Source: an uncultured euryarchaeote
Lineage (GTDB): Archaea > Thermoplasmatota > Poseidoniia > Poseidoniales > Poseidoniaceae
NCBI GenBank assembly: GCA_937899865.1
Contig: CALBRH010000005.1
Span: 1 to 22,855, forward strand
Reading direction: 5' to 3'
Length of the DNA stretch: 22,855 nt
The notes under the pieces were generated by a model. It was not told where the DNA came from. It made no database searches and saw nothing but the letters and a program-made list of their open reading frames with translations. A program made the translations under genes and the position numbers. Below, one piece after another: positions 1-16,756 of this stretch (positions are counted from its first letter, which is position 1; each line of letters opens with the position of its first letter).

Positions 1-55
1 GATCGCTACCTTGGCATGGTAGAGGCCCCGAGTTCAAATCTCGGCACGTCCACCA
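1..55 (+). tRNA. tRNA-Ala(GGC), 3' portion (5' end lies outside the window)
   Basis: Anticodon stem CTACC(6-10)/GGTAG(18-22) with loop TTGGCAT, anticodon GGC at 13-15. T-arm CCGAG-TTCAAAT-CTCGG (28-44). Acceptor 3' strand CACGTCC has U at position 70, as expected for the G3:U70 Ala identity pair. Discriminator A and encoded CCA (53-55). No intron. Confidence 0.96.
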
Positions 56-127: not shown

Positions 128-1054
128 TTGTGTGTCATTGTCATGGTAAGTCAAGGTGAAGATGAGGTTGTCACCCAAATACCCAAAGTTAAGCAGGTTA
201 AGATTGCCTCTTCATTCAACGAATTTCGTGAGTTTATTCAACATAACACACCGTGTGTTCTCTCTCAAGATTCAATCTATTCATTTCAAGATATTTTGGG
301 TGAATCTTGGCTAAGAGAACATGCGGGTCAAAGCCAAGTTTGCTTACGAAAGTCTCCAACTGGAAGATTCATAGATCCATCAGATAGTATTTTGAACATT
401 GCAAAGTCGCTAAGTGGAAAGAAAATTACGCTAAATGAATTTTTAAACCTTAAACAGTCGAGGACAATGTTATCTGGCACTGACACATATATTTTCACAA
501 AAGATTCAGTAGTTGAACAATGGTCAGATTTATGGTCTCATGCTCAAGAGGTTTTGCATGAACACGGGGGTGAAAAATCATTGATTTCAAGATCAAGACT
601 ATCCACTGTTGGTTTTTGGTTAAGTCGAGGTGGAATTCAATCAATCACTCATTATGATAATTCTCTCGACAATAATTTGAACTTTCAAATCAAAGGAAAA
701 AAAGAGTTTTTGATGTTCCCCCCTCAAGACTGGAAATATTTGAAAACATTCAAAGCGATGAGCATGCATCCTTTTTCATTCTTTCATGATATTAAAAAAG
801 GTGATTTCAACTCAATTCAGCAACAAAACTGTCAACCTCAAATGGTTGAGTTGAATGAAGGTGACATCCTATTCATCCCTTCAGGTTGGTTCCATTTTGT
901 GGAACATGTTGATGACTTGAACATCAATATGACCTACTGGTTCAAAACAGGATTGACAAAAAAAGAAATGATTAAGCCAAAACAAAGCCTTAGGAATATT
1001 TTCATTCCAATGAAATTGTCAATCGCATTCCTATTGGGATATTTTGTATCATAA
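128..1054 (+). CDS. JmjC / cupin-like (Cupin_8 type) Fe(II)/2-oxoglutarate-dependent oxygenase
   Basis: Numbering from the ORF track: FWLSRGGIQSITHYD gives H175-x-D177; NFQIKGKKEF gives the 2OG-binding Lys192; ELNEGDILFIPSGWFHFVEH gives the distal H256; INMTYWF closes the beta-helix. The likelier start is the ATG at 143. The C-terminus is hydrophobic. Confidence 0.9.
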   Translation: MCVIVMVSQGEDEVVTQIPKVKQVKIASSFNEFREFIQHNTPCVLSQDSIYSFQDILGESWLREHAGQSQVCLRKSPTGRFIDPSDSILNIAKSLSGKKITLNEFLNLKQSRTMLSGTDTYIFTKDSVVEQWSDLWSHAQEVLHEHGGEKSLISRSRLSTVGFWLSRGGIQSITHYDNSLDNNLNFQIKGKKEFLMFPPQDWKYLKTFKAMSMHPFSFFHDIKKGDFNSIQQQNCQPQMVELNEGDILFIPSGWFHFVEHVDDLNINMTYWFKTGLTKKEMIKPKQSLRNIFIPMKLSIAFLLGYFVS

Positions 1055-1076
1055 TTCAATAGATTATACTACCAAA

Positions 1077-1835
1077 TTAATTTTTTAACTTAATTGGTTG
1101 TTGAACTCTCACCCTTTTATACACCAATGTCAAACAAGCTATCATGCATAAGCATGTTGCAATTATATTGATAGTATTATCTAGTTTAGTGTATTGAACT
1201 AAACCTGGCAAAATTGATTCGTAAAATCCAAGATTTCCATCCCTACCAATTAGATCAAGTGTTATGATTAGGTAAAGGCTGTAGACTCTAAAATTTAACC
1301 ATTCAAACCAGTTTTTCGTAAAGACAGGCAGAAGTATACCGAGAGTTAAAATGATAATTCCAGGTATAATGTACTCAGTATGCCCATCTAATCTAAGGAA
1401 TCCTAAAATTAGTGTAAAAGTGTATACGCAACTCCATAACGGGTCATTGAACCCTAAATATCCGTTTTTGTTGAGTTCAAAATTCGGCATCGAAAGTATC
1501 AAGCAAAGCCCCATCAAAAAAATTGCATAATCCGAATATGACAAAGAAAAAATTGCCGGTATCAAAATATTAAGAAGTAGAACAATTTCTAAAAAACCTA
1601 TCAGAAAAGAATTTTCTTTTATCTTAAAGTTGAAACCTTGCAAGTATGCAAAACATATAATTGGAAAAACAACAACTATAACTTTCAATCTAAAAAACAA
1701 ATTTAGATCCTCATAAGCTCCAAACAGCATTACTGATATTGAGAATAGTGTAACAAAATAAAAGCTAGTTTTTGTGTACTTTTTCATTAACCAAACAAAA
1801 ATCAAAACTAAAGCAGAAAGGAGCGGTATAAACAA
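1077..1835 (-). CDS. Polytopic membrane protein of unknown function (about 7-8 TM helices; possibly DUF5692-like)
   Basis: Series of hydrophobic segments. The motifs NIL..A, W..VYT and W...RVYSL resemble my recollection of DUF5692-like proteins (unverified). It is the last gene of the minus-strand operon. A GGAGG at 1856-1860 suggests the start may be the in-frame CTG at 1847. Confidence 0.7.
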   Translation of the reverse strand: MFIPLLSALVLIFVWLMKKYTKTSFYFVTLFSISVMLFGAYEDLNLFFRLKVIVVVFPIICFAYLQGFNFKIKENSFLIGFLEIVLLLNILIPAIFSLSYSDYAIFLMGLCLILSMPNFELNKNGYLGFNDPLWSCVYTFTLILGFLRLDGHTEYIIPGIIILTLGILLPVFTKNWFEWLNFRVYSLYLIITLDLIGRDGNLGFYESILPGLVQYTKLDNTINIIATCLCMIACLTLVYKRVRVQQPIKLKN

Positions 1836-1855
1836 AATTAAATCCAGAGTTAAAA

Positions 1856-1860
1856 CCTCC
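1856..1860 (-). promoter_or_regulatory. Shine-Dalgarno-like GGAGG upstream of the 1077-1835 gene
   Basis: Minus strand reads TAA-GAA-GGAGG-TTTTAACT-CTG-GAT-TTA-ATT-TTG, directly after the stop of the upstream gene. Confidence 0.5.
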
Positions 1861-1863
1861 TTC

Positions 1864-3468
1864 TTATTCTTCGCATTCTAACGTCCTCCGCATTCCAGCA
1901 GCAAAATATGGTATTGCATATATTGTAAACACCCAAATAGAAGAAAGTGTCCAAGCTAGCCAAACTGGAATTGAGGCTGGAGGGTCGACCTCTAATGTGA
2001 TATGATCGCTAAACTCTTCACCAGCAATCGACGCCTTAATCTCCAATGTTTGATTTCCGCTGAATGTGAAATAATTTTCACCAAACCAGATAGATTGCCC
2101 AGGATATTGTTTGAATTCTTGAATCATCCTTACTTCGCCATTATCATCAAGATAGACAATCTCTGTCCACATTTTATCAATGCGCGATTCATTGTCTTCA
2201 GCAACTAATAGAATCTCACATGATTGGGGTGCTTTTGGTGGCCAAAGCATGAATTCTACCCAGACCTCAATTCCATCTATTTCGACTTCGATGCGCATTG
2301 GAGCATCAAATCCTGAACCTTCCTCGAAATTGTTGTCATGTGCGCTGACCGGAGTTATGAATAATAGAACCAATAATATCGCAAGAGATTTTGTTCTTGG
2401 TTTGAATTCAATGATTCCACTTTCTAGCGAAGAAAGGATTCTTGCAAAGTATTTGAGAATTAAAGGTATGCTAAGCCTGAGCAATAAGAATGCGATTACC
2501 AAATTCGCCATTGTGACCAAAAGTCCCACTTTTGATGGATAAAAGACCGGGAGAAAAGGTGAGAAAATTACATCGCTTAGTAATGCAACAATTACCAGTA
2601 AATTTGGACGATTAGCCAAATCGAATTTTGCAAATACAAATGCGACCAAGACGAAAAGGTATGTAACACAATGTGCAGCCCATACTGTGTTTGGAGCACC
2701 TGGACGATAAGTGTGTGAAGGACCCATTAGAATGTCTACTGTGATAGGAATAAAAATGAACATAGCACTTTGGATTACGAAGGTAAATCCGCCGAGAATA
2801 TAGATTACTTTAGGATCAAACCATTGCTTAGCAATTAGCAATATTGCAATTACAACTATTGGCCCAAAGTATAGATGTAACATCGTCGTAAATCCGAAAA
2901 CCGAAATTGTTGCTGCTCGAGGGTCAATGAAGTTCAAAAATGCGAAGCTTCCATGTAATAATAAAGTCCACAGGAGTATCGCTGCAAGAACATTTTTGCC
3001 TCTGAATTGATTCTCAGTATCATATTTCATCAAATCTCTAACCAACAAAACACTGGCAAATTCAGCCAACATTCCGCCGAATAATGTAAACATGTGTGGT
3101 GGAGTTATCACAGTGGTGTCGATACCAAATTGAGCATGCCAATAATCATCATAAATCGCACCTATTCCAATTGAAAACATCCCAAGTAAAATCATCCAAA
3201 CAGAACCTGGGGCAACAAATCCGAATATTTTGAATCCTGAAATTTCTTTGCCAGATTTGTAGTCTTTTGTATTGATAAATAAATAGTATAATGAAAACAA
3301 TATACAGAACGGAAATCCTGCCAAAATCATCACATGAGGTGGAGTCAACATTCTGTCCCTACCCACATCTAAATGCCATTGAATATCGATTGAGAGTCCC
3401 AATCTGGCAATTAGATGGTACAGTGTTAAGAAGATACAGAAGAAATAGACGAATCTTGGTCTATTCAA
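1864..3468 (-). CDS. Polytopic membrane protein with an N-terminal PmoC/AmoC-like metal-binding region and a C-terminal extracytoplasmic beta-rich domain
   Basis: Two motifs, D28-IQW-H32-LDVGRDRMLTPP-H45 and D107-DYW-H111-AQFGIDTTVITPP-H125, have the ligand spacing of the PmoC CuC and CuD sites. About 10 TM helices follow, then VSA-H377, a soluble domain and a C-terminal TM helix. The TTG start overlaps the upstream stop and has an SD GGAGGGT at 3474-3480. Confidence 0.75.
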   Translation of the reverse strand: MNRPRFVYFFCIFLTLYHLIARLGLSIDIQWHLDVGRDRMLTPPHVMILAGFPFCILFSLYYLFINTKDYKSGKEISGFKIFGFVAPGSVWMILLGMFSIGIGAIYDDYWHAQFGIDTTVITPPHMFTLFGGMLAEFASVLLVRDLMKYDTENQFRGKNVLAAILLWTLLLHGSFAFLNFIDPRAATISVFGFTTMLHLYFGPIVVIAILLIAKQWFDPKVIYILGGFTFVIQSAMFIFIPITVDILMGPSHTYRPGAPNTVWAAHCVTYLFVLVAFVFAKFDLANRPNLLVIVALLSDVIFSPFLPVFYPSKVGLLVTMANLVIAFLLLRLSIPLILKYFARILSSLESGIIEFKPRTKSLAILLVLLFITPVSAHDNNFEEGSGFDAPMRIEVEIDGIEVWVEFMLWPPKAPQSCEILLVAEDNESRIDKMWTEIVYLDDNGEVRMIQEFKQYPGQSIWFGENYFTFSGNQTLEIKASIAGEEFSDHITLEVDPPASIPVWLAWTLSSIWVFTIYAIPYFAAGMRRTLECEE

Positions 3469-4171
3469 TATTTACCCTCCATCTCAAATTAGAGACCCTA
3501 CCATTTCGATTCTTGATGCGATGTGTGATGATTCCGTTCTTTGATTTTGCCCATTCGAAAAAACGAGATACTTGCTCACCTGAAAGCCATTCTGAGGATG
3601 CAATAAATATATCGTCTTCAATACGATGATTGGTAATTTCTGGATCAGAAGTAAATGCTTCTGAATGATATTTTTTGTTCATTATTGCTGTGGAAGTAAA
3701 ACCATTTTGCTGTTTGTAATCAAAACTGCAATCAAGAATTTCCAATGGTCCATCTTTGGAAATAATGGCTACAAATGATATTGGGTTATGATTCCATTCA
3801 GTTTCTTTGTTTGGGCGATAATCGCCCGCTGTGAACAGAGCATACTTACAATCCATTGTCGGCAATAGGTCTGCGATTGTTTCTAGTGCATGATGAGGGC
3901 CACAACTACCGTCAAGAACATCAAAGGAGAATACATGTTTGCTGCTTGAGCTTATATCTTCACATCCAATTTTGAGGGCTTGTTGTAAATGGGCTGCAAA
4001 GGCAGGTTCTTGACGGAAATTTTGGCGATATGTCCCGGTGTGTACAATCAAACCGATATCTTGCAAATCTATTTGATGCTGCTTGCACAATTTATGAGTA
4101 ATACCCTTTAATGATTTTAACAAGGATTTTTTGTTGATTGGCTCAAACCTGAATGCCAAAATACCTACCAT
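3461..4171 (-). CDS. Truncated thiolase-fold / KAS III-like protein lacking the canonical catalytic triad (putative non-catalytic partner subunit)
   Basis: DIGLIVHTG...QEPAFAAHLQQAL...FSFDVLDGSCG...ALFTAGD aligns with the N-terminal half of the adjacent ketosynthase. Ser89 sits at the catalytic Cys position. There is no C-terminal HQ or GN motif, and the protein is only 236 aa. Its ATG overlaps the upstream stop (ATGGTAG). Confidence 0.75.
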   Translation of the reverse strand: MVGILAFRFEPINKKSLLKSLKGITHKLCKQHQIDLQDIGLIVHTGTYRQNFRQEPAFAAHLQQALKIGCEDISSSSKHVFSFDVLDGSCGPHHALETIADLLPTMDCKYALFTAGDYRPNKETEWNHNPISFVAIISKDGPLEILDCSFDYKQQNGFTSTAIMNKKYHSEAFTSDPEITNHRIEDDIFIASSEWLSGEQVSRFFEWAKSKNGIITHRIKNRNGRVSNLRWRVNIE

Positions 4172-5187
4172 TTTTCAACCCCCAAGGGGAGATAAAAATT
4201 CATGCCAATGAGTGATAGTCCTGAACCGAAGGCAATGAAGTAAATCTTCTGATTAGATTCCAATTTTCCGTCTTCAAGCAATTTTTCCAAAACGGTTACA
4301 TGAGAGGTAGATGCTGTGTTTCCTGTGTCATTAATCGAGCGAACTGCTTCTGAGTGACCCAAGGCTTTTCCAATAACTAATGCGCCTTTTTCGACCGCCC
4401 GTGGTGTAGTTTGATGAGAAATAACATGCTGATGTGAACTCCATTCTTCTGGACTCTTAATATCACGTTTAAGATATTCTCCTAGATTTGAAAGTGCAGC
4501 ATTTTGAAGTTTTCTAGATTCTGTTCTCATCGCTGGACCTGGTCTACCAATGGCAGCATCACCAATACACAGCTGGCTATATTGCGCCAATGTTATTGGC
4601 TCAAAGAATCGAATTCTATCTTCTTCGCTTCTAGAAATGACATAAGCTCCTCCAGCATCACCAATGGTCAAACTTGCAAGCGCTTTTGGATTTAATAGCA
4701 GGTTTTTACCTAGTGCTTCGTACAAAGCACCGGTCAGATATTCTCCTGAAACCACTAGTGCATTACGAATTTTTCCAGCCTTAATTTTTCTATCTGCAAT
4801 CAGTAATCCTGTAACCATTCCTGAACAAGCGTTGGCTACATCAAAATTTTGAGCATTGATACCAAGTGCTGTACTGATGTTAGATGCTAGGCATGGTTCG
4901 ATCAAATTTTGAAGTTTGGAATTCAACTTGGTTACCGAGCAAGAAATCACTAAATCAATCTCCTCTTTAGACACCCCTGACCTTTCAATCGCTTTGTTGG
5001 CAGCTTCTACTGCCAGTTCTAGCGAACCTTGGCCTTCTAAGACCTCATGATGAGACTCGATTTTGGTCAATCGCTTGAAGTCGATTCCTCTAGGAAGTGT
5101 GCCAAAAGGAATGGTGTCTTCGCTTGTTTTGAGATTTGGTGGAAGGTAACACGCGAATCCACTTATTTGTGTGTTCAAATCAACCAC
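4165..5187 (-). CDS. 3-oxoacyl-ACP synthase III family (FabH/OleA-like) condensing enzyme
   Basis: FDVANAC121SG nucleophile; ALVVSGE; GDAGGA; SH258Q; GN290TASTSH; FGSG at the C-terminus; OleA-like E97-P motif upstream of the Cys. Confidence 0.92.
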   Translation of the reverse strand: MVDLNTQISGFACYLPPNLKTSEDTIPFGTLPRGIDFKRLTKIESHHEVLEGQGSLELAVEAANKAIERSGVSKEEIDLVISCSVTKLNSKLQNLIEPCLASNISTALGINAQNFDVANACSGMVTGLLIADRKIKAGKIRNALVVSGEYLTGALYEALGKNLLLNPKALASLTIGDAGGAYVISRSEEDRIRFFEPITLAQYSQLCIGDAAIGRPGPAMRTESRKLQNAALSNLGEYLKRDIKSPEEWSSHQHVISHQTTPRAVEKGALVIGKALGHSEAVRSINDTGNTASTSHVTVLEKLLEDGKLESNQKIYFIAFGSGLSLIGMNFYLPLGVEKW

Positions 5188-5234
5188 CTAAGCAATTCTC
5201 GTTTCTTCTCAGTAAAAAAAGATTGAGCCGACAG

Positions 5235-6353
5235 TCATTTACCATTCCATTCGAATTCGTAGGTTGTTGCAGCAATCAAAGAAATTCTACGTCTTAGAGC
5301 AACCATTGTAAATCCGAGCAGTGAAATCAATTGTAAAAATCCAGGCCGAGGGTCAAAGACATTCCATTCTACCGATTTAGACCTCTTGATTGCTTTTCTC
5401 CAGTTCTTGAAATGACCTTTTTTAAAGAGGTTAGATACGAGGTTTATCCACATTGGCAAAACCAATCTTCGACTTGATCCAGTGCATTGGATTACTTCTC
5501 CATTCAAGATTGCATTATCGATCTTATCTTTAGTGGAATACAGATGTAATGCACTGGTTGCTCTGGGATTGCATTCTATTGGCCGTACTATTCCGTCCTC
5601 GCCAAGTATAACATCGAATGAAAGGAATCCAGTGTAGTTACAATTTGATGCGACTTTTTCGATTATACCACCTAAGTCCCCTTTACCGGTTTTCTCGAAA
5701 AAAACTGAACTTTTAGAAACGGTAAATTCGCTAGAGTATGCCACGCATGACAAAACTTTGCCATCTTTGCAAATTCCTTGCAAACAGTATTGTTTTCCAC
5801 CTAGCCTTTTTTGAAGAATCCAAGGGTTTGATTCACTTACATCAATTTTTAATTTGTTTAGATCAGGCTTCATAATAACATTTTCACCAAATCTTGAATA
5901 CACCGGTTTTAGAATATGATCTGGAGTTAGTTTTGATTTGATTTGTGAGATATTTTTTACCAAAATCGTTTCAGGAACATCAATACCTATGCTTTTTGCA
6001 AATTCAATGAATTCAAATTTATTGTGTAATCTATTCAAAGTCTCGATATCTGAACAGAAGTGATCACAATCTAAAGTCCCAAGGTTCAATCCATGGTGGA
6101 AGGTTTCTTCATATACTGGGATTACACAATCAATGGCTTCTGTTTTCACAACATGTTGCAACCACTGCGAAAACTGTTGGCTCTCGAAACGAGGCGATGG
6201 ATGACGCAAACATTTGTTTGGCCAAGATCTCCATCTACCCAAGTGAAATCTCTTAGTATCTGCCAAAATAACAGAGTGCCCTGATTCATGCAACAATCTA
6301 CCGAGGTGTATGGCTGCAGGACTTCTTGCACATGTCACAAGTACCTTTGCCAT
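5235..6353 (-). CDS. ATP-grasp domain protein (PRK06849-like)
   Basis: N-terminal KVLVTCARSPAA..L.R.L...GH.V.LAD; HPSPR; IDCVIPVYEE; LHNKFEF; ILKPVYSRFG; WILQKRL.G.QY; FLSFD; IECNPRATS. Confidence 0.9.
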   Translation of the reverse strand: MAKVLVTCARSPAAIHLGRLLHESGHSVILADTKRFHLGRWRSWPNKCLRHPSPRFESQQFSQWLQHVVKTEAIDCVIPVYEETFHHGLNLGTLDCDHFCSDIETLNRLHNKFEFIEFAKSIGIDVPETILVKNISQIKSKLTPDHILKPVYSRFGENVIMKPDLNKLKIDVSESNPWILQKRLGGKQYCLQGICKDGKVLSCVAYSSEFTVSKSSVFFEKTGKGDLGGIIEKVASNCNYTGFLSFDVILGEDGIVRPIECNPRATSALHLYSTKDKIDNAILNGEVIQCTGSSRRLVLPMWINLVSNLFKKGHFKNWRKAIKRSKSVEWNVFDPRPGFLQLISLLGFTMVALRRRISLIAATTYEFEWNGK

Positions 6354-6376
6354 GAACTTTCCACCTTGATGTATCG

Positions 6377-6383
6377 AATAAAG
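6377..6383 (-). promoter_or_regulatory. TATA-like box (CTTTATT) of the ATP-grasp gene
   Basis: Lies 24-30 nt upstream of the ATG at 6353. The same spacing recurs at several other genes in this window. Confidence 0.45.
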
Positions 6384-6447
6384 TATGGCTATGACAAATC
6401 CTTTAGCCGGCGAAAAAATGTAATATTCGGTCTGGTCTGATTACGCT

Positions 6448-7557
6448 ATGGAAACTCTCTCTCACCTTGATTTAGTGCAGGGGTGGGATGAAATGATTCG
6501 TCAACATGGATGGGCAAATCTTGCTGACAATTTAGAATGTGAATCTGGATTGATATCTATTGGAGATAAGTTGGTTCCATACACTAAAAATCATATGACT
6601 AAAGAAACATTATGCTACACGATTTCTACTTTTACTCACTATTATCATTACTTAAGGGAAGAAATGGATATAGTTGGTCTTCGCTTTTCAAAGTTGATAT
6701 TAATGCCTCCGCTATGGTTAATCGGCTTTTTTCTGCGCTTTGCAAAGGTAGACCAAGCCTTTACCATCAATAATTTTGGTCTTTCAACAAATCTTTTTCC
6801 TAAGGGGTTGAGAGCAAAAGAATGGGAAGAAGTTGTATCAGAGGTTGAAAAATCAAATCCAAAACATGCGATTTTAGTTCGCTCGGTTAACCGGGGCCTA
6901 AATTCTAATGATTATGATGCTCTAATAGGATGTGGATTCAAGCCAATGTTTGCTCGCAATGTGTTGTTGTTTCCACACAAACCAATCGAGCTCTTCCAAA
7001 AAGGAAAAAGGCGACAAATTCTACGTGATGAAAAACTTGAACAAAAGTTGGGCTTTGAATGGCTATCAGAAGTCAAATTAAATGAAGAGCAGGCATCACG
7101 TGTCGCCGATTTATATAACCAATTATACCTAGGTAAATATTCCAAAAATAACCCTCGTTTCACGCCATTATTTCATTACGAGTGTTCCAATCGGAAAATT
7201 TTGAATTATCAATTATTATTCGACGGAGACCAAATCATTGGAGTATTAGGCATGAAGGTTGTAGACGAAGTTTCAACCACGCCGATTTTGGGTTATGATC
7301 ATCATCACCCAAATGCAAATGTTCTGTACCGAATTATTACTGCCAAAATCACTAGAACCAGTTCAGATTGTAATTTCCACCGGCATGCGAGTTCCGGGGC
7401 AAATAAATTCAAGCAATTACGCGGCGGTGTGACAAATGAAGAATTCACCATGGTCAAGACATCACATTTATCTTGGTGGCGTCGTCTAAATTGGGGACTA
7501 ATCCGTTTTATGGCTCAAAAGATTGGTAGACCTTTAACCCACAAATTCGAAACCTAA
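6448..7557 (+). CDS. GNAT-fold (Fem/Acetyltransf_6-like) transferase of the family usually found next to PRK06849-type ATP-grasp genes
   Basis: Motifs CYTISTFTHYYHYLREE, NNFGLSTNLFP, HAILVRSVN, KRRQILRD, LYNQLYLGKYSKNNPRFT, TPILGYD...LYR and SSGANKFKQLRGG. The gene is divergent from the ATP-grasp gene. Confidence 0.75.
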   Translation: METLSHLDLVQGWDEMIRQHGWANLADNLECESGLISIGDKLVPYTKNHMTKETLCYTISTFTHYYHYLREEMDIVGLRFSKLILMPPLWLIGFFLRFAKVDQAFTINNFGLSTNLFPKGLRAKEWEEVVSEVEKSNPKHAILVRSVNRGLNSNDYDALIGCGFKPMFARNVLLFPHKPIELFQKGKRRQILRDEKLEQKLGFEWLSEVKLNEEQASRVADLYNQLYLGKYSKNNPRFTPLFHYECSNRKILNYQLLFDGDQIIGVLGMKVVDEVSTTPILGYDHHHPNANVLYRIITAKITRTSSDCNFHRHASSGANKFKQLRGGVTNEEFTMVKTSHLSWWRRLNWGLIRFMAQKIGRPLTHKFET

Positions 7558-8718: not shown

Positions 8719-10263
8719 CTAATGAGTTAAACTCATCTGACTGGATGAATACTCTTGACTTTTATTCAATGCAGAAAGTATTTCTGTGAATGCTTTAATG
8801 TCTTGTTGCTTTTTTTCATCGCTACGTTTGGCAAGATTTCTAAGGGGCATTGCTAACCTTATGTTACCTTCAAATGATTCTTTATGCCGTTCAAGAAAAG
8901 CCCAATATAGATTTGAAACCTTGCAATCTTTCTTTGGATTGAATTTACAATTTTTGCAAAAATCTGACATTTTATTGATGTATGGTGTTCCTGAAACATA
9001 TGGTTTTGTCATCATTGCCGGGCCAAGAGAATATGTCCCCATACCCAATACGTTTGGCTCAACTACCCAATCATAAGCATCAATGAAAGCTTCGTGAAAC
9101 CAAGTAGTTAATTCTCTTGGATTAATATCGAGTAAACTAGCAAAATTACTCAGAACCATCAATCTAGGTATATGATGAGTCCATCCTTCATCTAAGACTG
9201 ATTCTACAACCAAATCTAAGCAATTAAATCCACTTTTTGCCCCCCAAAACGCTTGAGGGAGAGGATTATTCTGATGCAAATAATTTGGTTGATCTAATCG
9301 TTTATCAAATACATCAAGAGTTCTAAAGCCGTCTGTTACATCATGGATATGCTTGACGTATTCTCGCCATATCATTTGTCGGAAAAATCCTTCAATGCTA
9401 TTAATCGGTGCATTATTGGAGATAACTAATTCCACAATTTGTTGTGGTGAAAGTCGGTGAAGATTTACTGAAATCGCTAATTTAGAATGGAATAAATATC
9501 TACTTTTACTACTCATTGCATCTTCATATTTTCCAAAATGCTGCAAATTTTTGATGGCCCAATCTAATGCTTGATGTTGCTGTTCGATACTTGTAGGAAC
9601 TTTACTTAAATCACATTCACCGGGATGGTTTGAGAACTTCTGATTTACTAATTTCATCACAGATTCGTCTATCTCATCTATTGAGAATCGTAATTCTTCT
9701 TGAGTTTCTGGATTACCCTTCCATGGCATGCGATTATCAGCATCAAAACTATACTTGCCTCCTATTGGTTTTCCTTGTTCCATCAAAATACCGGTTTCTT
9801 TTCTCACCCTTTGATAGAATTTATCCATTCTAAATGGTGGTTTAACTCCGACTGATTCGACAAACCACTCACGCTTTGTTAGCCACCCATTGTGTTCATG
9901 TCGTATCAAATTGCCAGTACTAAATAACGGTTCAAGTTCAATTCTCATACTTCTTTCTGCAGGAATTACAACATTAATCGGACCTAAATCATTTGACACT
10001 TTAAACAGTAAATCATGATAGTTCCCTGAAGTGTAAAGATACTTTATCGGATGTCCAAGTTCTTGTGCTTCTTTAGAAAAATGTCTCATATTAGACAATA
10101 ATAATGCCAATTTCTGTTTGTGAAAATTAAGTGATTTACCTTTGGCTTCAGACTCAATGAAAATCAAACCGGTACTAGTTCTATCCCCCTTAGACCAAGG
10201 AAAAATATCATGGTTAAGTTGATCATAACATACGAAATACCAATCTATCTCTTCGTCAACCAT
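8719..10263 (-). CDS. Cryptochrome/photolyase family protein, FeS-BCP (PhrB/CryB-like bacterial-type 6-4 photolyase) with DPRP domain
   Basis: YDQL; FHKQKLALLLSNMRHF; MDKFYQRVRKETGILM; GGKYSFDADNR; LFHSKLA; NSIEGFFRQMIWREY; WTHHIPRLMV; DAYDWVVEPNVLGM; TKPYVSG..YINKMSDFC..C. Four Fe-S Cys are present (GFNC and CKNC...C). Confidence 0.93.
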   Translation of the reverse strand: MVDEEIDWYFVCYDQLNHDIFPWSKGDRTSTGLIFIESEAKGKSLNFHKQKLALLLSNMRHFSKEAQELGHPIKYLYTSGNYHDLLFKVSNDLGPINVVIPAERSMRIELEPLFSTGNLIRHEHNGWLTKREWFVESVGVKPPFRMDKFYQRVRKETGILMEQGKPIGGKYSFDADNRMPWKGNPETQEELRFSIDEIDESVMKLVNQKFSNHPGECDLSKVPTSIEQQHQALDWAIKNLQHFGKYEDAMSSKSRYLFHSKLAISVNLHRLSPQQIVELVISNNAPINSIEGFFRQMIWREYVKHIHDVTDGFRTLDVFDKRLDQPNYLHQNNPLPQAFWGAKSGFNCLDLVVESVLDEGWTHHIPRLMVLSNFASLLDINPRELTTWFHEAFIDAYDWVVEPNVLGMGTYSLGPAMMTKPYVSGTPYINKMSDFCKNCKFNPKKDCKVSNLYWAFLERHKESFEGNIRLAMPLRNLAKRSDEKKQQDIKAFTEILSALNKSQEYSSSQMSLTH

Positions 10264-10286
10264 GTTGTAAACAAACTATTAGAGAA

Positions 10287-10293
10287 CATAAAC
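10287..10293 (-). promoter_or_regulatory. TATA-like box (GTTTATG) of the photolyase-OYE unit
   Basis: Lies 24-30 nt upstream of the ATG at 10263. Confidence 0.5.
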
Positions 10294-10304
10294 CCCTGTT
10301 TTGA

Positions 10305-11555
10305 TTACAGATTTTGAAGTCTTGAATCGTCAACCCATTCATCCCAACTAGAATCGAATCCAACGTAATGAATTAGATAATTATCGCCTTTGACTTCGCG
10401 AATTAATCCATCCCACCAACTACCTTTCCATTCTACTTTTACCTGCTGTCCTGCAGCATAATCAGATTTGTTAAATGGGTGGTCTTGTGGTCTAATTTCC
10501 CAACCTGTAGGGCCTACAATGTAAATCGTATTATTTGTCTCAACTCTAGCAGTTGCTCTATTATCATAAGTCATGCTCAAAATAGCAGATGTCTTTACTT
10601 CAGTATCGCCCAATTTGGGATGCCCATGTACAAATCCATGTAATGAGTCACCGATTATTTTTGCATTTTGAATGATTACTTCAGATTTAGCTTCAAAGGG
10701 TTGAACCATTATTTTTGCAAGATCCTTATAGTTCAATTCTGAATCCATTGAAATTCCCATTTCGTTAAACATTTCTTGAGCTTCAGAAACGTCTAATGGA
10801 TCACCCATCTGTGTTAAAATTTCGAATAATTTGCTAGCATGAATAGTTCCTGAATTATTTTCGTCAAATACCTTAAACGAATCAATCAATTCTTGTTCTT
10901 CTTTCGAGATTTGTTCAACATAGGCTTGAGTCGCTTCTGAATCTGGTTGTTTAGCAATTCTTGAAGGAGGTACTCCAGACTCAACATCACCATCATCGAA
11001 GTGTATCATATAGGTGTGGTGTGGTTGTACTTCAGCGATTTTACCTGGGAAATAAGTGCCATAGTTTTTCCAGTTAACTAATACTCTGTCTCCCTTGTTC
11101 AATGCATCATCCGCACGGCGAATATTTCTTGGCCCATCTCCAATAAGCAAACCTTGCTTTGATTCTACACCACTACTCTTTGGTACATCTACATCATAAC
11201 TTCCATCATCATTTATCTTAGTAACAGTACATCTATCTAGCCATCGTTCATTTGTCGGACTGAAGTATTCGACATGCGTACCAACTTCTAATTCAGGAAT
11301 TATTGGTGATTGTATCATTTCTTCGACTTGAACACTAGTCTGATTTTTGTTAACCATCCCTAAGCGTTCCAATGCAGTTATTACTGCATTTGTAACTGCA
11401 TCAACATCATTGTTAATTACTGTATTATGAACAACATCTCCACCAACTACTGAATCTTGCATATTCAAAGTCTGACTAGCCTTTGGAGGTGCAGGAATCC
11501 ATTCGGAACCACTCCACATAAATTTACCATCGGGACTGTAAATAGGTTCTGACAT
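10305..11555 (-). CDS. Multidomain protein: Trp-rich N-terminal motif, two Tudor/SH3-like barrels, calmodulin-like EF-hand pair, small GHP/TS domain, C-terminal Tudor-knot (chromo-barrel)
   Basis: SPDGKFMWSGSEWIP; GDRVLVNW..YGTYFPGKIAEV..TYMIHFDDGD; SFKVFDENNSGTI...LTQMGDPL...EAQEMF; GQQVKVEWKGSWWDGLIREV...YLIHYVGFDSSWDEWV. I moved the start to the ATG at 11555 because the ORF-track extension to 11609 overlaps the upstream gene. Confidence 0.8.
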   Translation of the reverse strand: MSEPIYSPDGKFMWSGSEWIPAPPKASQTLNMQDSVVGGDVVHNTVINNDVDAVTNAVITALERLGMVNKNQTSVQVEEMIQSPIIPELEVGTHVEYFSPTNERWLDRCTVTKINDDGSYDVDVPKSSGVESKQGLLIGDGPRNIRRADDALNKGDRVLVNWKNYGTYFPGKIAEVQPHHTYMIHFDDGDVESGVPPSRIAKQPDSEATQAYVEQISKEEQELIDSFKVFDENNSGTIHASKLFEILTQMGDPLDVSEAQEMFNEMGISMDSELNYKDLAKIMVQPFEAKSEVIIQNAKIIGDSLHGFVHGHPKLGDTEVKTSAILSMTYDNRATARVETNNTIYIVGPTGWEIRPQDHPFNKSDYAAGQQVKVEWKGSWWDGLIREVKGDNYLIHYVGFDSSWDEWVDDSRLQNL

Positions 11556-11598
11556 AAATAGTCTAAATCGATTAATTAAAAAGAGATTTTGAAGAAAA

Positions 11599-13995
11599 TC
11601 AATCTTCAATTAAATCGTCTTTGTTATTGTTCTTCTTTACTGGAAATAACTTATCCATCCATTTTGGCGACCACCAATTTGCCTTGCCCATAAGCCTCAT
11701 TGTTGCTGGGACTACTAGCGCCCTAACTATTGTTGCATCTAGAAGAATTGCCAATGCTAAACCAAATCCTATTTGCTTTAGTATTACTACTGAAGATAAT
11801 CCAAATGCACTGAATACGACTACCATAATAGCTGCAGCACCAGTAATCAAACGGCCTGTTTTCTGAAGTCCATTTGCGACTGCAAGTGTATTATCTCCTG
11901 TACGCTCCCATTCTTCATGAATTCTAGAAAGCATCAAAACTTCATAGTCCATTGATAAACCAAATACAATACAAAATAGAATTATTGGATTTGTTGTTTC
12001 AATTGGTTGGGGTGTAAAGTTTAGTAATTCAGCTCCATTACCCCATTGGAAAACAAATACCAGCATACCAAATGACGCTGAAACAGATAAAATATTCATT
12101 ATAATCGCCTTAATTGGAATTATTACACTTCTAACTTGAATAAATATGAGTAGAATGGTTGCGACTAGAATAAATGTTATCGCAATCGGAAGATTATCGA
12201 TAATCGCATCAAGAACATCTAAACTGTATGCTGCAAACCCGGCAACCATTAGAACTCCATCATCTCCAGTGTTTAATTCTGATAGTAATTCTCCTCTTTC
12301 TGACCTAACGTCCGATACAAAATCCCTGCTGCTTTCTCCAGTGATAGTTCCTGTCAGTGAAAATATGACAAAAGTAACATTTTCAGAGATAAATTGGTCT
12401 CTAAGATATTCTCGGCTAGCAATAGTATCATTATCTAAAAATTCATCAGGAGTTTGCCAAAACTGGAGTACTTCTGATTCACTCATATTTTCACTAGGCA
12501 ACGCAAATCCTGAAGCATTAATTACTCGATCATCATCTAAATAATTCTTCATCCAACGATACATTGTAACCAGATTATTTTCTTCAAGAGGGTCTTCTCC
12601 ATCAAAGTCGATTACAATCATTGCTCGATTAACTGCACCTTCTGGCCATTTTTCATCTATTAACTCAAAGCCTATTCTGGTTTCATCATCAGGAGGTAAT
12701 GCATCTCTTGAAGCAATAGAAAAATCAGCCTGTAAAAATGGTAAACCCGCACCTAATAGAATGACGAGTGTAGGAATCAATACGGCCCATGGACGTTTCA
12801 TTACAAAATTAGCAATCCTTGCCCATGCTCCGTCTTCTTTCTCTCCTTCAGTAGAAAATGCAAATTTGATTTTATTAGGAATTCTAAACGGCTTTTTTCT
12901 TATCGGCAACTTCAACAAAAATACATCTTTATCTAATTTTGTTCCTAAAATGACCAAGATTGCTGGTAACACAATAATAGAGAATAGCATGGCTATGCTC
13001 ACTGCTAATGTTCCTCCAATTCCTAAACTTGGAAGTCCAGTATTTTCGAAGAAAAGCATACCCATTAAGCCAATTGCAACAGTTATTCCGCTGAAAAATA
13101 CTGCTTTACCAGCTGTTGCAACTGTCATTGCAATTGAAGTTCGAGAATCTCTGCCATGACCCAATTCCTCTCTGAATCTGTATACCATAAAGAGGGAATA
13201 ATCAACCGATACTCCTATTCCTATCAGTGTAATTATGTTAAGCGCATATTGGGTTACATCGGTGATATTGGAAAGCCAAATGGTCACACCCATGGCTGAA
13301 ATGACCGTCAGCATAGCAACTCCAATAGGTAATATTGCAGCAACTATAGTGCCAAAAACTATGCCTAATATAATCAGTGACAAAGGCCCTGAAATTAGTT
13401 CTGCTTTGATTAAATCATCTTGAATTCTAGAATCAAAAATAACATCGATTGCTAAATCTCCTGTACGCCATGAATTAAATTCAGAATCTACATCAATATT
13501 TTCCCAGTTTTCATCATAAATTGCCTTTGCTTCTTTCCGTTCTATAGAAATTTTCACTTTGTTTTTAGCCCAAAAACCATCTTCATCTTGGTAGACAAAA
13601 TTGTCTCGTTTTTCTCCAGAAGTTTCCCAAGAGTACTGTATTGTGACATCATCCATAACTGCAAAGTCGGCTAAAGCAGAAATCACCGCTGCTCGCCATT
13701 CTGGAGAAGAATCGTTTAGATTCGGATGGTTAATCAATAGAATGAAGTTCTCTGACTTGTTTCCTTCATCTTCAGATGCAAAAGCACTCTTTTGCAAGTC
13801 CCCTGCCTCAACAGATTCTAGATCTCCCTCGCCCCAAGATTCTGCCCAGTTTGGCCCCATAGAAATTAGAGAACCTAACATCAAACAAGACAAAATTCCG
13901 ATAATTAGAACTTTTTTATGGTGGTCATGGACTGCTTCTCCTAATTTGTAAAATGCTCTACCTTCAAGCATTTTTGGGTCTGTAGACCACTCCAT
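11599..13995 (-). CDS. MMPL family (RND superfamily) membrane transporter
   Basis: Two MMPL repeats: AELIS.P...L..VFG...AA.LP; GIGVSVDYSLF...RFREE; TAGKAVFFSGITV; FGLSMDYEVLMLSRIHEEW; TGRLITGAAAIM; LDATIVRALVVPATM...G..NWW.P. Confidence 0.95.
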   Translation of the reverse strand: MEWSTDPKMLEGRAFYKLGEAVHDHHKKVLIIGILSCLMLGSLISMGPNWAESWGEGDLESVEAGDLQKSAFASEDEGNKSENFILLINHPNLNDSSPEWRAAVISALADFAVMDDVTIQYSWETSGEKRDNFVYQDEDGFWAKNKVKISIERKEAKAIYDENWENIDVDSEFNSWRTGDLAIDVIFDSRIQDDLIKAELISGPLSLIILGIVFGTIVAAILPIGVAMLTVISAMGVTIWLSNITDVTQYALNIITLIGIGVSVDYSLFMVYRFREELGHGRDSRTSIAMTVATAGKAVFFSGITVAIGLMGMLFFENTGLPSLGIGGTLAVSIAMLFSIIVLPAILVILGTKLDKDVFLLKLPIRKKPFRIPNKIKFAFSTEGEKEDGAWARIANFVMKRPWAVLIPTLVILLGAGLPFLQADFSIASRDALPPDDETRIGFELIDEKWPEGAVNRAMIVIDFDGEDPLEENNLVTMYRWMKNYLDDDRVINASGFALPSENMSESEVLQFWQTPDEFLDNDTIASREYLRDQFISENVTFVIFSLTGTITGESSRDFVSDVRSERGELLSELNTGDDGVLMVAGFAAYSLDVLDAIIDNLPIAITFILVATILLIFIQVRSVIIPIKAIIMNILSVSASFGMLVFVFQWGNGAELLNFTPQPIETTNPIILFCIVFGLSMDYEVLMLSRIHEEWERTGDNTLAVANGLQKTGRLITGAAAIMVVVFSAFGLSSVVILKQIGFGLALAILLDATIVRALVVPATMRLMGKANWWSPKWMDKLFPVKKNNNKDDLIED

Positions 13996-14097
13996 GTTGC
14001 TCGGGGTTAGAATTCCATATTTGAACTGATGTTTTCCAACTAAAATTTTTAGTTTAGAATACGAGATTTGATAACTTAAATCAATTACAGGTTTTTC

Positions 14098-14616
14098 ATG
14101 GCAAGAGCATTGTTAGGCGGTGGTTGTTTTTGGTGCACAGAAGGGGCATTTAAACGAATGAAAGGTGTAATTTCTGCATTACCAGCATATGCTGGTGGAG
14201 AAATGGTAAATCCAGATTATCGCTCTGTATGCGATGGAATTACAGGACATGCAGAAATTGTTGAAGTAAAATTTGATGAATCTGTTATATCATTTGATAC
14301 AATTCTAGATGTTTTTTTCACAGTTCATGACCCTACTCAACTGAACCGCCAAGGCAATGATATTGGCACACAATACCGTAGTTGTATAATGCCGATAAAT
14401 CCAAATCAGCTTGAAATCGCTGAGCAAAAAATTGCTGAAATGCAACCTGTTTTTGACAATAAGATTGTTACTACAATTGAGGAACCTATTAACTTCACAA
14501 TCGCTGAAGATTATCATCATGATTATTATGCTAGAAATCCAAATCAAGGCTACTGTATGGCTGTTGTTGGTCCGAAAATCGCCAAGATAAGGCAAAAATT
14601 TGCTCATCTACATTAG
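14098..14616 (+). CDS. msrA: Peptide-methionine (S)-S-oxide reductase
   Basis: GGGCFWCTE active site; Y..VC.G.TGHAE; HDPTQLNRQGNDIGTQYRS; AEDYHHDYY; GYC. Confidence 0.97.
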   Translation: MARALLGGGCFWCTEGAFKRMKGVISALPAYAGGEMVNPDYRSVCDGITGHAEIVEVKFDESVISFDTILDVFFTVHDPTQLNRQGNDIGTQYRSCIMPINPNQLEIAEQKIAEMQPVFDNKIVTTIEEPINFTIAEDYHHDYYARNPNQGYCMAVVGPKIAKIRQKFAHLH

Positions 14617-14652
14617 GGTGAAATTCAATAGACGGCTATTACAGGGCGGTAC

Positions 14653-16287: not shown

Positions 16288-16574
16288 AGTGGTAACTTCT
16301 TGCTTTTGTCAGCAAGTTTGACAGATTCTGTTAATACCCTTGGCTCGAATCCAATACTAACCAACGAAATTATCCACCAGCCAAGAGATAGTAAAAATGT
16401 TGAAATTAGCATCAATAGACAAAGGAACACAACAATATTACCTCCTGATAATTGCCATGACCACCATCCAGAAAATATCATTCCTAATATGAAAAATATT
16501 CTTGCAGCTTCACTTGGAGTTGACCAACCGCGATGGTCTTTCCTAGGTGCAAATAGATACTCCATGAGGCTCAT
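16266..16574 (-). CDS. Small hypothetical membrane protein (2 TM helices)
   Basis: Two hydrophobic segments. A TATA-like TTTTATG lies 24-30 nt upstream of the ATG. The 3' end overlaps the pruA stop by 22 nt. Confidence 0.65.
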   Translation of the reverse strand: MSLMEYLFAPRKDHRGWSTPSEAARIFFILGMIFSGWWSWQLSGGNIVVFLCLLMLISTFLLSLGWWIISLVSIGFEPRVLTESVKLADKSKKLPLHSFRKP

Positions 16575-16597
16575 AGTGACAAAATAATTTTTGTTAC

Positions 16598-16604
16598 CAT
16601 AAAA
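16598..16604 (-). promoter_or_regulatory. TATA-like box (TTTTATG) of the 16266-16574 gene
   Basis: Same -24 to -30 spacing seen at other genes in the window. Confidence 0.45.
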
Positions 16605-16661
16605 ATGCGTGTATATTAGTAAACTTCCGATTAATTATTGAAATAAAACCCATAGGGTCAA

Positions 16662-16732: not shown

Positions 16733-16756
16733 CCAATTAGAAAAAAAGGGAAGAAT

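Follow-up and report, generated by a model that had tools for sequence, protein, structure and literature searches.

Seven contiguous genes beside a tRNA-Ala gene in a marine Group II archaeon raise the question of whether they serve one pathway and, if so, what it might make. The window, that is the whole stretch analysed, comprises 22,855 nucleotides of the Poseidoniaceae assembly GCA_937899865.1 (contig CALBRH010000005.1, positions 1 to 22,855). A sequence-only reading had proposed a lipid or small-molecule cluster at 128-7557. We confirmed its coordinates and open reading frames, including the overlaps of 7 nt between g5 and g4 (4165-4171) and 8 nt between g4 and g3 (3461-3468), and domain, profile and structure matches supported all seven gene identities to some degree (Table 1). 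The seven intact ORFs encode proteins 92-96% identical to those of a sister genome and sit between tRNA-Ala(GGC) and an old-yellow-enzyme gene. These two flanking genes neighbour each other in relatives without the seven-gene block, and in genomes G009 and G020 a distance of 0.4-1.5 kb separates the tRNA-Ala gene from the g8 homologue and g1-g7 are all absent from the interval, which establishes the island's boundaries. ARAGORN reported no tRNA in the window, although Rfam matches the truncated gene; its anticodon loop reads TTGGCAT, giving GGC and hence Ala. g1-g7 is a real, co-inherited island.

Table 1. Features of the island, in window coordinates
Feature	Position	Strand	Description
tRNA-Ala(GGC), 3' part	1-52	+	cut by contig end; Rfam RF00005, 33.8 bits, 5'-truncated; left boundary of the island
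g1	128-1054	+	JmjC/Cupin_8 Fe(II)/2-oxoglutarate-type hydroxylase; convergent with the operon
g2	1077-1835	-	multi-pass membrane protein; last gene of the minus-strand operon
g3	1864-3468	-	PmoC/AmoC-like membrane protein with CrdA-like beta-sandwich and final TM helix
g3 C-terminal beta-sandwich domain	1954-2352	-	preceded by a TM helix and invariant His377
g3 motif 2, D107-x3-H111-x13-H125	3094-3150	-	aligns with PmoC CuD ligands N227/H231/H245; Asp replaces Asn
g3 motif 1, D28-x3-H32-x4-R37-x7-H45	3334-3387	-	aligns with PmoC CuC ligands D156/H160/H173 and R165
g4	3461-4171	-	truncated Cys-less KAS III paralogue, 236 aa; predicted partner subunit of g5
g5	4165-5187	-	KAS III-family condensing enzyme
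g6	5235-6353	-	PRK06849-type ATP-grasp ligase; first gene of the minus-strand operon
g7	6448-7557	+	GNAT-fold (Acetyltransf_6/BioF2/FemAB-like) transferase; divergent from g6

The gene-neighbourhood comparison suggested by the sequence-only reading showed that the genes do co-occur in other genomes. About 40 Poseidoniales loci show the order g5-g4-g3, with identities of 31-96%, so the association is not a chance one, and the full g7/g6...g2/g1 layout recurs in one subclade. In these roughly 40 loci a five-gene unit keeps the same order. The conserved Poseidoniaceae unit consists of a KAS III enzyme, its half-KAS partner, the PmoC-like membrane protein, an OleD-like reductase (SDR) and an F390/PaaK-like adenylating enzyme (F390-related). 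Occurrence within the genus is patchy: KAS III was present in 11 of 24 sampled genus members, while for TIGR02304 the counts were 12 of 59 genomes sampled from family f1 and 0 of 59 from family f3. The SDR and F390-related genes are absent from the window, and an intact pair of them lies elsewhere in the same genome (contig C33, 64772-67005) in the arrangement TauE|SDR-F390rel, 68-70% identical to type-B genes. Genes for KAS III, the half-KAS and the membrane protein are missing there: the site is the locus of the other cluster type (type B), which has lost its own first three genes. A second species (G139) shows the same split. From this complementary gene content we infer that the window operon and the C33 pair work together. 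The proposed acyl- or lipid-type cluster is therefore conserved and uncharacterised, as claimed, but not self-contained, two of its enzymes being encoded on C33. In NCBIfam the SDR comes closest to the pair of models for 2-alkyl-3-oxoalkanoate reductase (OleD), with about 150 and 144 bits, although it stays far under their cut-offs (about 150 versus 580 bits). Against TIGR02304 the F390-related protein reaches 388.8 bits, over the cut-off of 251.9, and its adenylating enzyme class is PaaK/F390, not OleC.

The identification of g5 and g4 as an OleA/FabH-like synthase with a truncated partner was borne out. g5 matches both KAS III domains (PF08545 and PF08541) and scores about equally against E. 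coli FabH (69.8 bits) and X. campestris OleA (60.8 bits). Its Cys121, His258 and Asn290 are invariant in 22 homologues, among which the Glu117-equivalent position varies (E/D/S). g4 has no Pfam match and only weak matches to the FabH N-half; its profile matches OleA chains (4ktm/4ku3/3row, E 3e-5 to 1.4e-4) and also FabH chains. Glu55-Pro56 of g4 is invariant and E55 aligns with OleA Glu117 (Glu117-Pro), while the OleA Cys143 position holds a variable residue that is never Cys. The predicted g5/g4 complex scored 0.96 versus 0.00 for the best of three controls; among solved complexes 58 of 80 attain this mark, as do 2 of 110 mismatched pairs. At least 95% of contacts agreed between runs and the partner pLDDT was at least 91, but this pass may only reflect likeness to solved thiolase-fold dimers.

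OleA Glu117 and the LstAB heterodimer are documented (PMC7064751 and references therein). Like LstAB (lipstatin), NltAB (nocardiolactone) and PqsBC, g5 and g4 are adjacent KAS III-family genes with a predicted heterodimer and the catalytic Cys in one subunit (PMC7064751). The archaeal partner, however, is shortened to 236 aa, without the C-terminal half of the thiolase fold, and the cluster has neither NRPS nor formyltransferase, as in lipstatin, nor the anthranilate chemistry of Pqs. Like OleABCD, the archaeal genes encode a condensing enzyme of the KAS III family in which Glu occupies the OleA Glu117 position, a reductase of the 3beta-HSD type closest to OleD and an ATP-dependent carboxylate-activating enzyme. 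In contrast to OleABCD, the Glu lies on a separate truncated subunit, the activating enzyme and the reductase depart from OleC and OleD as described above, and no OleB was seen in the archaeal cluster.

The PmoC motif noted earlier in g3 was recovered by hhalign against AmoC (probability 86.5%, E 4.6e-6): all six Asp/His ligand positions and the Arg align with the same spacings. Motif 1 pairs with AmoC D136/H140/R145/H153 and motif 2 with N207/H211/H225; both are invariant, motif 1 across 41 archaeal and bacterial homologues. The CuC and CuD ligand identities of PmoC are from PMC12576850, and the pMMO active site is the pocket that holds CuC and CuD (PMC11725843). AmoC chains are the top three PDB matches of the family profile. 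The AlphaFold models of g3 (pLDDT 81.5 for the whole protein and 90.2 for the TM domain) comprise a PmoC/AmoC-like region (residues 1-350), an extracytoplasmic beta-sandwich (about 388-498) and a final TM helix. The TM model aligns with PmoC chain 9cl1 in the expected register (residues 2-155 to 129-275, 16% identity, Z 6.5), and the conserved His/Asp residues lie at helix ends on one membrane face with exact CuC/CuD spacing. g3 thus resembles PmoC/AmoC (PF04896) in its four-helix core, in the placement of the site at the outer membrane face and in the identically spaced D-x3-H-x4-R-x7-H and D/N-x3-H-x13-H motifs; it differs by extra TM helices, the fused beta-sandwich, Asp in place of the CuD Asn and the lack of a detected PmoA or PmoB. 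In the window g3 has no Pfam match, AmoC included, and Pfam AmoC gave sub-threshold matches in only 6 of 30 family members. A search of the genome for AmoA and PmoB homologues found none. g3 appears to be a distant AmoC/PmoC homologue that has kept both copper-site ligand sets and would bind a metal there.

The best structural match of the C-terminal domain of g3 is the copper protein CrdA (9ll2, Z 13.0, rmsd 2.3, 103 residues aligned), the second-best reaching only Z 10.4. H377, E405 and M407 are invariant and M448 nearly so. The fold and the conserved His and Met are shared with CrdA, YtkA (CtaK) and Tp34/HftA; unlike in these proteins, the putative metal-binding domain of g3 forms part of a polytopic protein, with a TM helix on either side. 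Some bacterial g3 homologues have a YtkA-like gene downstream, as in Trueperaceae, or carry a weakly similar domain in fusion. The family comprises 3457 representative clusters, with examples in non-methanotrophic bacteria.

Among the remaining genes, g6 matches NF005315 (278.8 bits, below the cut-off of 406) and PF02655 (ATP-grasp_3). g7 has no Pfam match; its assignment as a Fem/GNAT-like transferase is supported by an Atlas feature score of 0.98 to Acetyltransf_6/BioF2-like clusters, 19-26% of whose members have PF13480, and by the NCBI annotation of several bacterial homologues as GNAT. g2 has no Pfam or NCBIfam match, and its homologues adjoin the cluster in seven other loci (eight in total) of different cluster types at 24-71% identity, with K51, N89, D131, R183 and D194 invariant. 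g1 matches PF13621 (Cupin_8, 108 bits) and, below threshold, JmjC; its best solved relatives are FIH, TYW5 and JMJD5/7, and its HxD...H aligns with that of FIH. g1 adjoins the cluster in seven loci, but its link to the pathway is weak: the gene is convergent and conserved in one shallow subclade only, it is absent from L035, the most divergent type-A locus, and its characterised relatives hydroxylate proteins or tRNA.

The cluster does have relatives. Five gene families, KAS III among them, are shared with a widespread, uncharacterised bacterial cassette of KAS III, NAD(P)-dependent SDR, MBL and F390 synthetase-related genes, with or without ATP-grasp and GNAT genes. Examples are found in Bacillus mycoides (p237, NZ_CP036118.1, 55063-61508), Paraburkholderia (NZ_CP155076.1, 328659-335139), Rhizobium (NZ_CP125641.1) and E. 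coli (NZ_CP141085.1, 85456-92337); our literature search found no paper on the function of this TIGR02304-centred cassette. Archaeal and bacterial proteins are 41% (F390-related), 33% (SDR), 30% (g7) and 29% (ATP-grasp) identical, but only 24% for KAS III. g6 is 27-32% identical to the cassette ATP-grasp genes, g7 matches the last gene of the B. mycoides cassette (30% identity, E 1e-56), and a g7-type gene lies at most 5 kb from an ATP-grasp gene in 11 plasmid records. The ATP-grasp, GNAT-like, reductase and adenylating enzyme genes derive from the bacterial cassette. Bacterial cassettes are compact operons, often with a lipid oxygenase attached, and other versions carry FA_hydroxylase, sterol/acyl-CoA desaturases or a Rieske protein. 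In the archaeal form the gene set is instead split over two loci in this genome, the MBL-fold hydrolase is missing (none by tblastn of genome and loci), and a half-KAS partner, the PmoC-like protein, g2 and, in this clade, the JmjC gene are added. In four bacterial cassettes the KAS III residue that corresponds to Glu117 is Ile or Leu instead of Glu, and head-to-head chemistry is therefore no property of the whole cassette.

We propose, with about even confidence in the scheme as a whole, that g1-g7 belong to an acyl-condensation cassette shared by lateral transfer, of which they are the Poseidoniaceae form called type A, and that they act with the C33 pair. g5, with its Cys-His-Asn triad, and the Cys-less g4, supplying the Glu, would form a heterodimer that condenses acyl thioesters, the likeliest reaction being the joining of two acyl-CoAs head-to-head without decarboxylation, as by OleA, LstAB and NltAB. 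The SDR would reduce the 3-oxo product and the TIGR02304 enzyme would adenylate its carboxylate. g6 and g7 may add an amine or amino-acid group, and g3, with its own CrdA-like metal-binding domain, may oxidise the lipid within the membrane. g2 would be an accessory membrane protein; g1 might act in tailoring or be unrelated.

Several results pull against this scheme, namely the near-equal FabH and OleA scores of g5, the bacterial KAS III without Glu117, the distance of the SDR and the adenylating enzyme from OleD and OleC, and the weak AmoC signal of g3. Alternatively, g5/g4 could extend an acyl-CoA primer decarboxylatively with malonyl-CoA or malonyl-ACP, as FabH does. Reduction of the 3-oxoacyl product would give a 3-hydroxy acid, which after adenylation the ATP-grasp and GNAT enzymes would couple to an amine or amino acid; the membrane oxygenases would then hydroxylate or desaturate the resulting lipoamino acid or aminolipid. 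This route, the nearest to the aminolipid idea of the sequence-only reading, is possible but doubtful. It fits the best solved matches of g5, which are FabH enzymes, the missing OleA Glu in the KAS III of bacterial cassettes, and the joint gain and loss of ATP-grasp and GNAT genes in bacteria and archaea alike. A PPTase and a megasynthase of 2940 aa (KS-AT-ACPx3-KR-DH) encoded in the genome also agree with it and contradict the earlier premise that ACP-based synthesis is lacking, yet PF00550 matched inside the megasynthase only, so that no ACP standing alone was detected in the genome. Moreover, decarboxylative KAS III chemistry makes no use of the invariant Glu-Pro that g4 has at the OleA Glu117 position, OleD models remain the best family matches of the SDR, and type-B clusters keep the five-gene core without ATP-grasp and GNAT genes.

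g3 could also be no oxygenase and play a supporting role: it might handle copper or another metal, act on lipids as a metal-dependent hydrolase or transferase, or carry electrons by haem in the manner of b561. Cytochrome b561 is the best structural neighbour of the TM bundle (Z 10.1, 163 residues; STEAP1, Z 6.5) and, with generic four-helix bundles, ranks above PmoC in fold searches; the C-terminal domain is similar to copper chaperones and to proteins of copper resistance; no AmoA or PmoB homologue turned up in the genome; and homologues from this large family occur in bacteria away from any KAS III cassette. We nevertheless consider this unlikely, as bis-His haem ligands are mid-helix whereas the conserved residues of g3 are at helix ends, g3 overlaps g4 and is a fixed operon member in every archaeal locus examined, and other cassette versions contain bona fide lipid oxygenases. 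It seems more improbable still that the island is not one pathway, with only g6-g2 linked, g1 and perhaps g7 as passengers, and an operon that may be decaying without its reductase and adenylating genes. The position, distribution and solved relatives of g1, the two genes missing from the window and the patchiness in the genus agree with this view; against it stand the intact, highly conserved ORFs, the place of g7 as an ordinary bacterial-cassette member, and the two missing genes, which are intact elsewhere in the genome in an arrangement repeated in a second species.

Overall, we favour the acyl-condensation cassette completed by the C33 pair. Its substrates, head-to-head chemistry, metal, step order and product are what we infer from gene identities, conserved residues and remote homology. 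Most likely, the Poseidoniaceae cluster would make a lipid that is condensed, reduced, activated, and oxygenated or amino-acylated.

All seven ORFs of the cluster were found where the sequence-only reading had placed them, in a 2.01-Mb, 91%-complete MAG. The five genes g6-g5-g4-g3-g2 form a run with intergenic gaps, in this order, of 47, -7, -8 and 28 nt; the second and third are the 7-nt (g5/g4) and 8-nt (g4/g3) overlaps noted from the sequence alone. g7 is divergent from g6 at a distance of 94 nt, and g1 is convergent with g2. The tRNA at the start of the contig, for which ARAGORN gave no match in the window, was recovered with Rfam; its 5' part is cut off by the contig end, and the anticodon loop GGC identifies it as tRNA-Ala. 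A scan for sigma-70 promoters and terminators is not meaningful for an archaeon.

Coordinates of the cluster genes, their surroundings and related loci
Feature	Contig or locus	Coordinates	Strand
tRNA-Ala, 5'-truncated	window	1-52	
Seven-gene block	window	128-7557	
g1, JmjC/Cupin_8	window	128-1054	+
Run g6 to g2	window	6353 to 1077	-
g2, membrane protein	window	1077-1835	-
g3, PmoC-like	window	1864-3468	-
g4, half-KAS (Cys-less KAS III paralogue)	window	3461-4171	-
g5, KAS III	window	4165-5187	-
g6, ATP-grasp	window	5235-6353	-
g7, GNAT-like	window	6448-7557	+
Cryptochrome/photolyase-related gene and 434-aa protein gene	window	8719-11609	
MMPL-family transporter	window	11599-13995	
SDR/F390-related pair	C33	64772-67005	
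Type-B locus with TauE (L099)	C33	63753-67011	
2940-aa megasynthase	C1	82979-91801	
Whole megasynthase region	C1 (L110)	82118-92568 (9519-19966)	
tRNA 3'-end repeats	L115 (G016:C5)	1006-1377	
Hybrid cluster	L033	856-8165	

Two relatives without the cluster have the same tRNA-Ala at a distance of 0.4 kb (G009) or 1.5 kb (G020) from the homologue of g8, the old yellow enzyme gene beyond g7, and none of g1-g7 was found between the two. Therefore, the seven genes constitute one insertion/deletion block, which has the same extent as the cluster first delimited by eye. A second copy of the tRNA 3' end was not found in the window, which therefore has no att-like repeat, and no tRNA-derived direct repeat was present at the far end of the island. 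The MMPL-family (RND-type) membrane transporter gene, 4 kb away from the cluster, lies outside the island, because it adjoins the g8 homologue in cluster-less relatives. Between g8 and this transporter gene the window carries genes for a cryptochrome/photolyase-related protein (DPRP and FAD_binding_7) and for a 434-aa protein that contains an EF-hand pair and matches Tudor-type domains below threshold; neither was found at that position in four relatives, and the gene pair is a second insertion/deletion difference. In locus L115 of another genome, the 16-nt tRNA 3' end occurs five times at a spacing of ~87-92 bp, which probably marks tRNA genes arrayed in tandem.

The cluster is real, conserved and uncharacterised. 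In a search of 40 relatives, the KAS III gene was identified in 11 members of the genus, out of 24. The neighbourhoods retrieved, together with a scan across GTDB based on the g3 alignment, yielded ~40 Poseidoniales loci sharing the order KAS III, half-KAS, membrane protein, SDR and a 424-430-aa protein. The latter, an adenylating enzyme, belongs to TIGR02304 ('F390 synthetase-related'; 388.8 bits, cut-off 251.9), and its solved relatives are PaaK-type ligases. With 59 genomes sampled per family, TIGR02304 was present in 12 for the window's family and in 0 for the sister family, and hence the operon is an accessory trait of MGIIa. The loci fall into two types. Type A (the window, L023-L031 and L035) has g7 and g6 upstream, often with g2, and the JmjC gene lies downstream in type A only within a shallow clade. 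Type B adjoins a TauE gene and has an FA_hydroxylase gene upstream in some members. Homologues of g2 (24-71% identity) occur beside clusters of different types. Locus L033 is a hybrid with type-A g6, g3, SDR and F390-related genes beside an inverted type-B-like half-KAS/KAS III pair, and the two cluster types appear able to exchange parts.

The SDR and adenylating enzyme genes are missing after g3 in the window and in loci L023 and L024. The genome holds exactly one SDR/F390-related pair, located on contig C33, with 68-70% identity to type-B genes and a TauE gene 273 bp away. KAS III, half-KAS and PmoC-like genes were not found at this locus, which is a type-B locus that lost three genes and complements the cluster in the window. 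The genome of L024 has the same split arrangement. We infer that the split arose by reciprocal loss after two paralogous sets had coexisted; such loss between loci argues that the five core genes act as a unit with interchangeable parts, and suggests that they work as one.

The proposal of a synthase with a truncated partner held for both proteins. g5 contains KAS III Pfam domains and the Cys-His-Asn triad in a thiolase fold that is typical of OleA (Cys121, His258 and Asn290, invariant in 22 homologues), and it scores alike with FabH (69.8 bits) and Xanthomonas campestris OleA (60.8 bits). g4 had no match in Pfam and, as a single sequence, none in the PDB, and a 24-sequence profile matched OleA chains (E 3e-5 to 1.4e-4). 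The position of the catalytic Cys143 is variable in g4 (Ser/Thr/Ala/Ile/Asn), and the fold lacks its C-terminal half with His and Asn. In an HMM alignment to 4ku3 the invariant Glu55-Pro56 of g4 falls on OleA Glu117-Pro; Glu55 thus corresponds to the Glu117-type base that OleA receives from the partner subunit, and residues 51-61 are part of the modelled interface. The Glu117-equivalent of g5 itself varies (Glu, Asp or Ser), and it is Ile or Leu in four KAS III enzymes of the bacterial cassette described below. According to PMC7064751, with references 12 and 17 therein, OleA Glu117 was shown to be key to condensing two acyl-CoAs, and LstA/LstB form a heterodimer.

The adjacent, overlapping g5 and g4 genes encode proteins with a complex prediction score of 0.96 (best of 3 controls 0.00); of 80 solved complexes, 58 reached the mark applied, as did 2 of 110 mismatched pairs. 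The resemblance to solved thiolase dimers may explain this score, which measures likeness and not binding because thiolase-fold dimers have solved structures. Contacts agreed by at least 95% between the runs, with a partner pLDDT of at least 91, and the predicted interface pairs residues 51-61 and 79-88 of g4 with residues 113-120 of g5.

Which known system does the cluster resemble? An archaeal thiolase/HMG-CoA synthase/DUF35 complex was dropped, as g5 is a KAS III and g4 is not a DUF35 protein. LstAB/NltAB-type KAS III pairs consist of full-length proteins, whereas g4 is truncated to 236 aa. In OleABCD the adenylating enzyme is OleC, whereas here it belongs to TIGR02304 of the PaaK/F390 class; two OleD models are the best family matches of the SDR (150 and 144 bits), but their cut-offs are far higher (580), and neither enzyme qualifies as an OleD or OleC orthologue. 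An OleB-type alpha/beta-hydrolase gene was not seen in the loci examined. The best 120 matches of a homologue search with the F390-related protein were all from Poseidoniaceae, so that the bacterial context came from the plasmid collection instead.

In this collection, tblastn located homologues of the ATP-grasp, g7 and F390-related genes together. The operon of Bacillus mycoides comprises KAS III, ATP-grasp, SDR, MBL, F390-related and g7-like genes, and that of Paraburkholderia KAS III, SDR, MBL, F390-related, ATP-grasp and GNAT genes, a set to which Rhizobium adds a Rieske protein; Escherichia coli has KAS III, SDR, MBL, F390-related, PAP2, sterol desaturase and acyl-CoA desaturase genes. 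ATP-grasp and g7 homologues are at most 5 kb apart in 11 plasmid records, and the two genes are present or absent together in the bacterial and archaeal loci and records examined. g7 has 30% identity to the last gene of the B. mycoides cassette (E 1e-56), and identity to the cassette proteins is 33% for the SDR (E 3e-53), 27-32% for the ATP-grasp protein and only 24% for KAS III (E 4e-12). Hence, the KAS III, SDR, F390-related, ATP-grasp and GNAT homologues are common to both forms, whereas the MBL-fold hydrolase encoded in bacteria between SDR and adenylating enzyme was not found in the archaeal form: tblastn with three MBL queries (E<=1e-3) detected no cassette-type MBL hydrolase, either in the genome or among 76 related loci. 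The description that fits the cluster best is that of a new archaeal version of the bacterial KAS III/TIGR02304 cassette, one that shows Ole/Lst-like features and includes an added PmoC-like protein. The sequence-only reading knew of no described pathway that combines such genes; our literature search indeed found no paper describing the cassette, the archaeal operon or the g3 family, but five of the gene families are shared with the bacterial cassette.

That reading also presumed that archaea generally lack ACP-based fatty acid synthesis, and this premise fails here. PF00550 matched solely inside a 2940-aa KS-AT-ACPx3-KR-DH protein, which has an enoyl-ACP-reductase-like gene on its upstream side and a gene for a 4'-phosphopantetheinyl transferase on its downstream side; a stand-alone ACP was not found in the genome with PF00550. 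Thus, ACP-based synthesis is not lacking in this genome. The PfaA-like megasynthase with its three tandem ACP domains is a possible source of acyl chains, unexpected in an archaeon.

g1 is a JmjC oxygenase, as proposed, with Cupin_8 at 108 bits (cut-off 27.4) and an intact HxD...H iron triad, whose HYD and later His align with those of FIH. Its role in the cluster is doubtful, because its solved relatives FIH, TYW5 and JMJD5/7 act on proteins or tRNA. The window's g7 matched neither PF13480 nor PF04339, and its profile had no match in the PDB; one of nine homologues matched PF13480 (E 0.0014), and g7 had an Atlas score of 0.98 to clusters with PF13480 in 19-26% of their members.

The PmoC motif recognised by eye in g3 proved to comprise both copper-ligand sets. 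Many polar residues are invariant in 23 archaeal sequences, and D28, W31, H32, G36, R37, D38, T42, P43, P44, H45, D107, H111, G115 and H125 are invariant in 41 archaeal and bacterial homologues. The window's g3 did not match Pfam AmoC (PF04896), and 6 of 30 family members gave matches that stayed under its gathering score (best E 0.0016). An archaeal-only profile had no match in the PDB; AmoC matched only once bacterial homologues were added, and the three best PDB matches of the mixed profile are AmoC chains (E 7e-4 to 2.5e-3). We collected AmoC proteins from the 46-residue AmoC stretch of the PDB match, aligned them and compared them with the g3 profile by hhalign (probability 86.5%, E 4.6e-6, 89 columns). 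D28/H32/R37/H45 of g3 aligned with AmoC D136/H140/R145/H153, and D107/H111/H125 with N207/H211/H225, with Asp replacing Asn. In PmoC, CuC is bound by D156/H160/H173 and CuD by N227/H231/H245 (PMC12576850), and the pocket with CuC and CuD is the pMMO active site (PMC11725843). The spacings in g3 equal those of PmoC D156/H160/R165/H173 and N227/H231/H245, and g3 thus has the CuC/CuD ligand set of a CuMMO subunit C, with six residues invariant and one Asn changed to Asp.

Residues 2-155 of the model of the g3 TM domain (pLDDT 90.2) aligned with residues 129-275 of PmoC 9cl1 in the expected register (16% identity, Z 6.5, rmsd 3.9, 134 residues). Cytochrome b561 (Z 10.1) and other helical bundles ranked above PmoC, and therefore the structural test is compatible with homology and not discriminating. 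Foldseek and a wide VIA search with this model had no PmoC/AmoC chain among the top matches listed, and PmoC reached rank 27 in a second-look fold list. With the full-length model, fold searches matched the C-terminal domain only. This domain (388-498) is a beta-sandwich with the copper protein CrdA as best match (Z 13.0, rmsd 2.3, 103 residues; next match Z 10.4). By the positive-inside rule, applied to sequence and model, the beta-sandwich and both motifs would face outward. Trueperaceae have a YtkA-like gene after the g3 homologue, and some Chloroflexota carry a weakly similar domain next to it or fused with it.

The g3 family comprises 3457 representative clusters (E<=1e-3), and the examples inspected had no Pfam domain and no name. 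An Atlas feature search with g3 returned unnamed Actinomycetota clusters (0.83-0.86), a lead only, and a shape search returned unnamed bacterial membrane proteins. In bacterial loci L066-L098 (Chloroflexota, Deinococcota, Bacteroidota, Acidobacteriota and others) the PmoC-like gene is usually followed by a gene for an unannotated 500-570-aa protein or a YtkA-like gene, and no KAS III cassette was found there. PF02461 (AmoA/PmoA) and PF04744 (PmoB/AmoB) had no match in the 91%-complete genome, with control genomes equally silent. Perhaps, though we think it unlikely, g3 and its family of ~3,500 clusters are copper membrane monooxygenases that work on their own, with a CuC/CuD-type site and without PmoA/PmoB, which in Poseidoniaceae would oxidise a head-to-head-condensed lipid produced by an archaeal OleA-like heterodimer. 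If true, the disputed pMMO active site would gain a minimal model in a single polypeptide, and for marine Group II archaea this would be a first route of non-isoprenoid lipid biosynthesis.

Marine Group II ranks among the most abundant archaea of the surface ocean. Its members are uncultured and their lipids unknown, according to the abstract of PMC8473941. A conserved accessory operon for joining, reducing, activating and probably oxygenating acyl chains is a clonable target for finding the MGII product. The large unannotated family of g3 keeps both copper-ligand sets of the pMMO/AMO pocket in one polypeptide and, if g3 is an oxygenase, would offer a far simpler system for pMMO/AMO chemistry.
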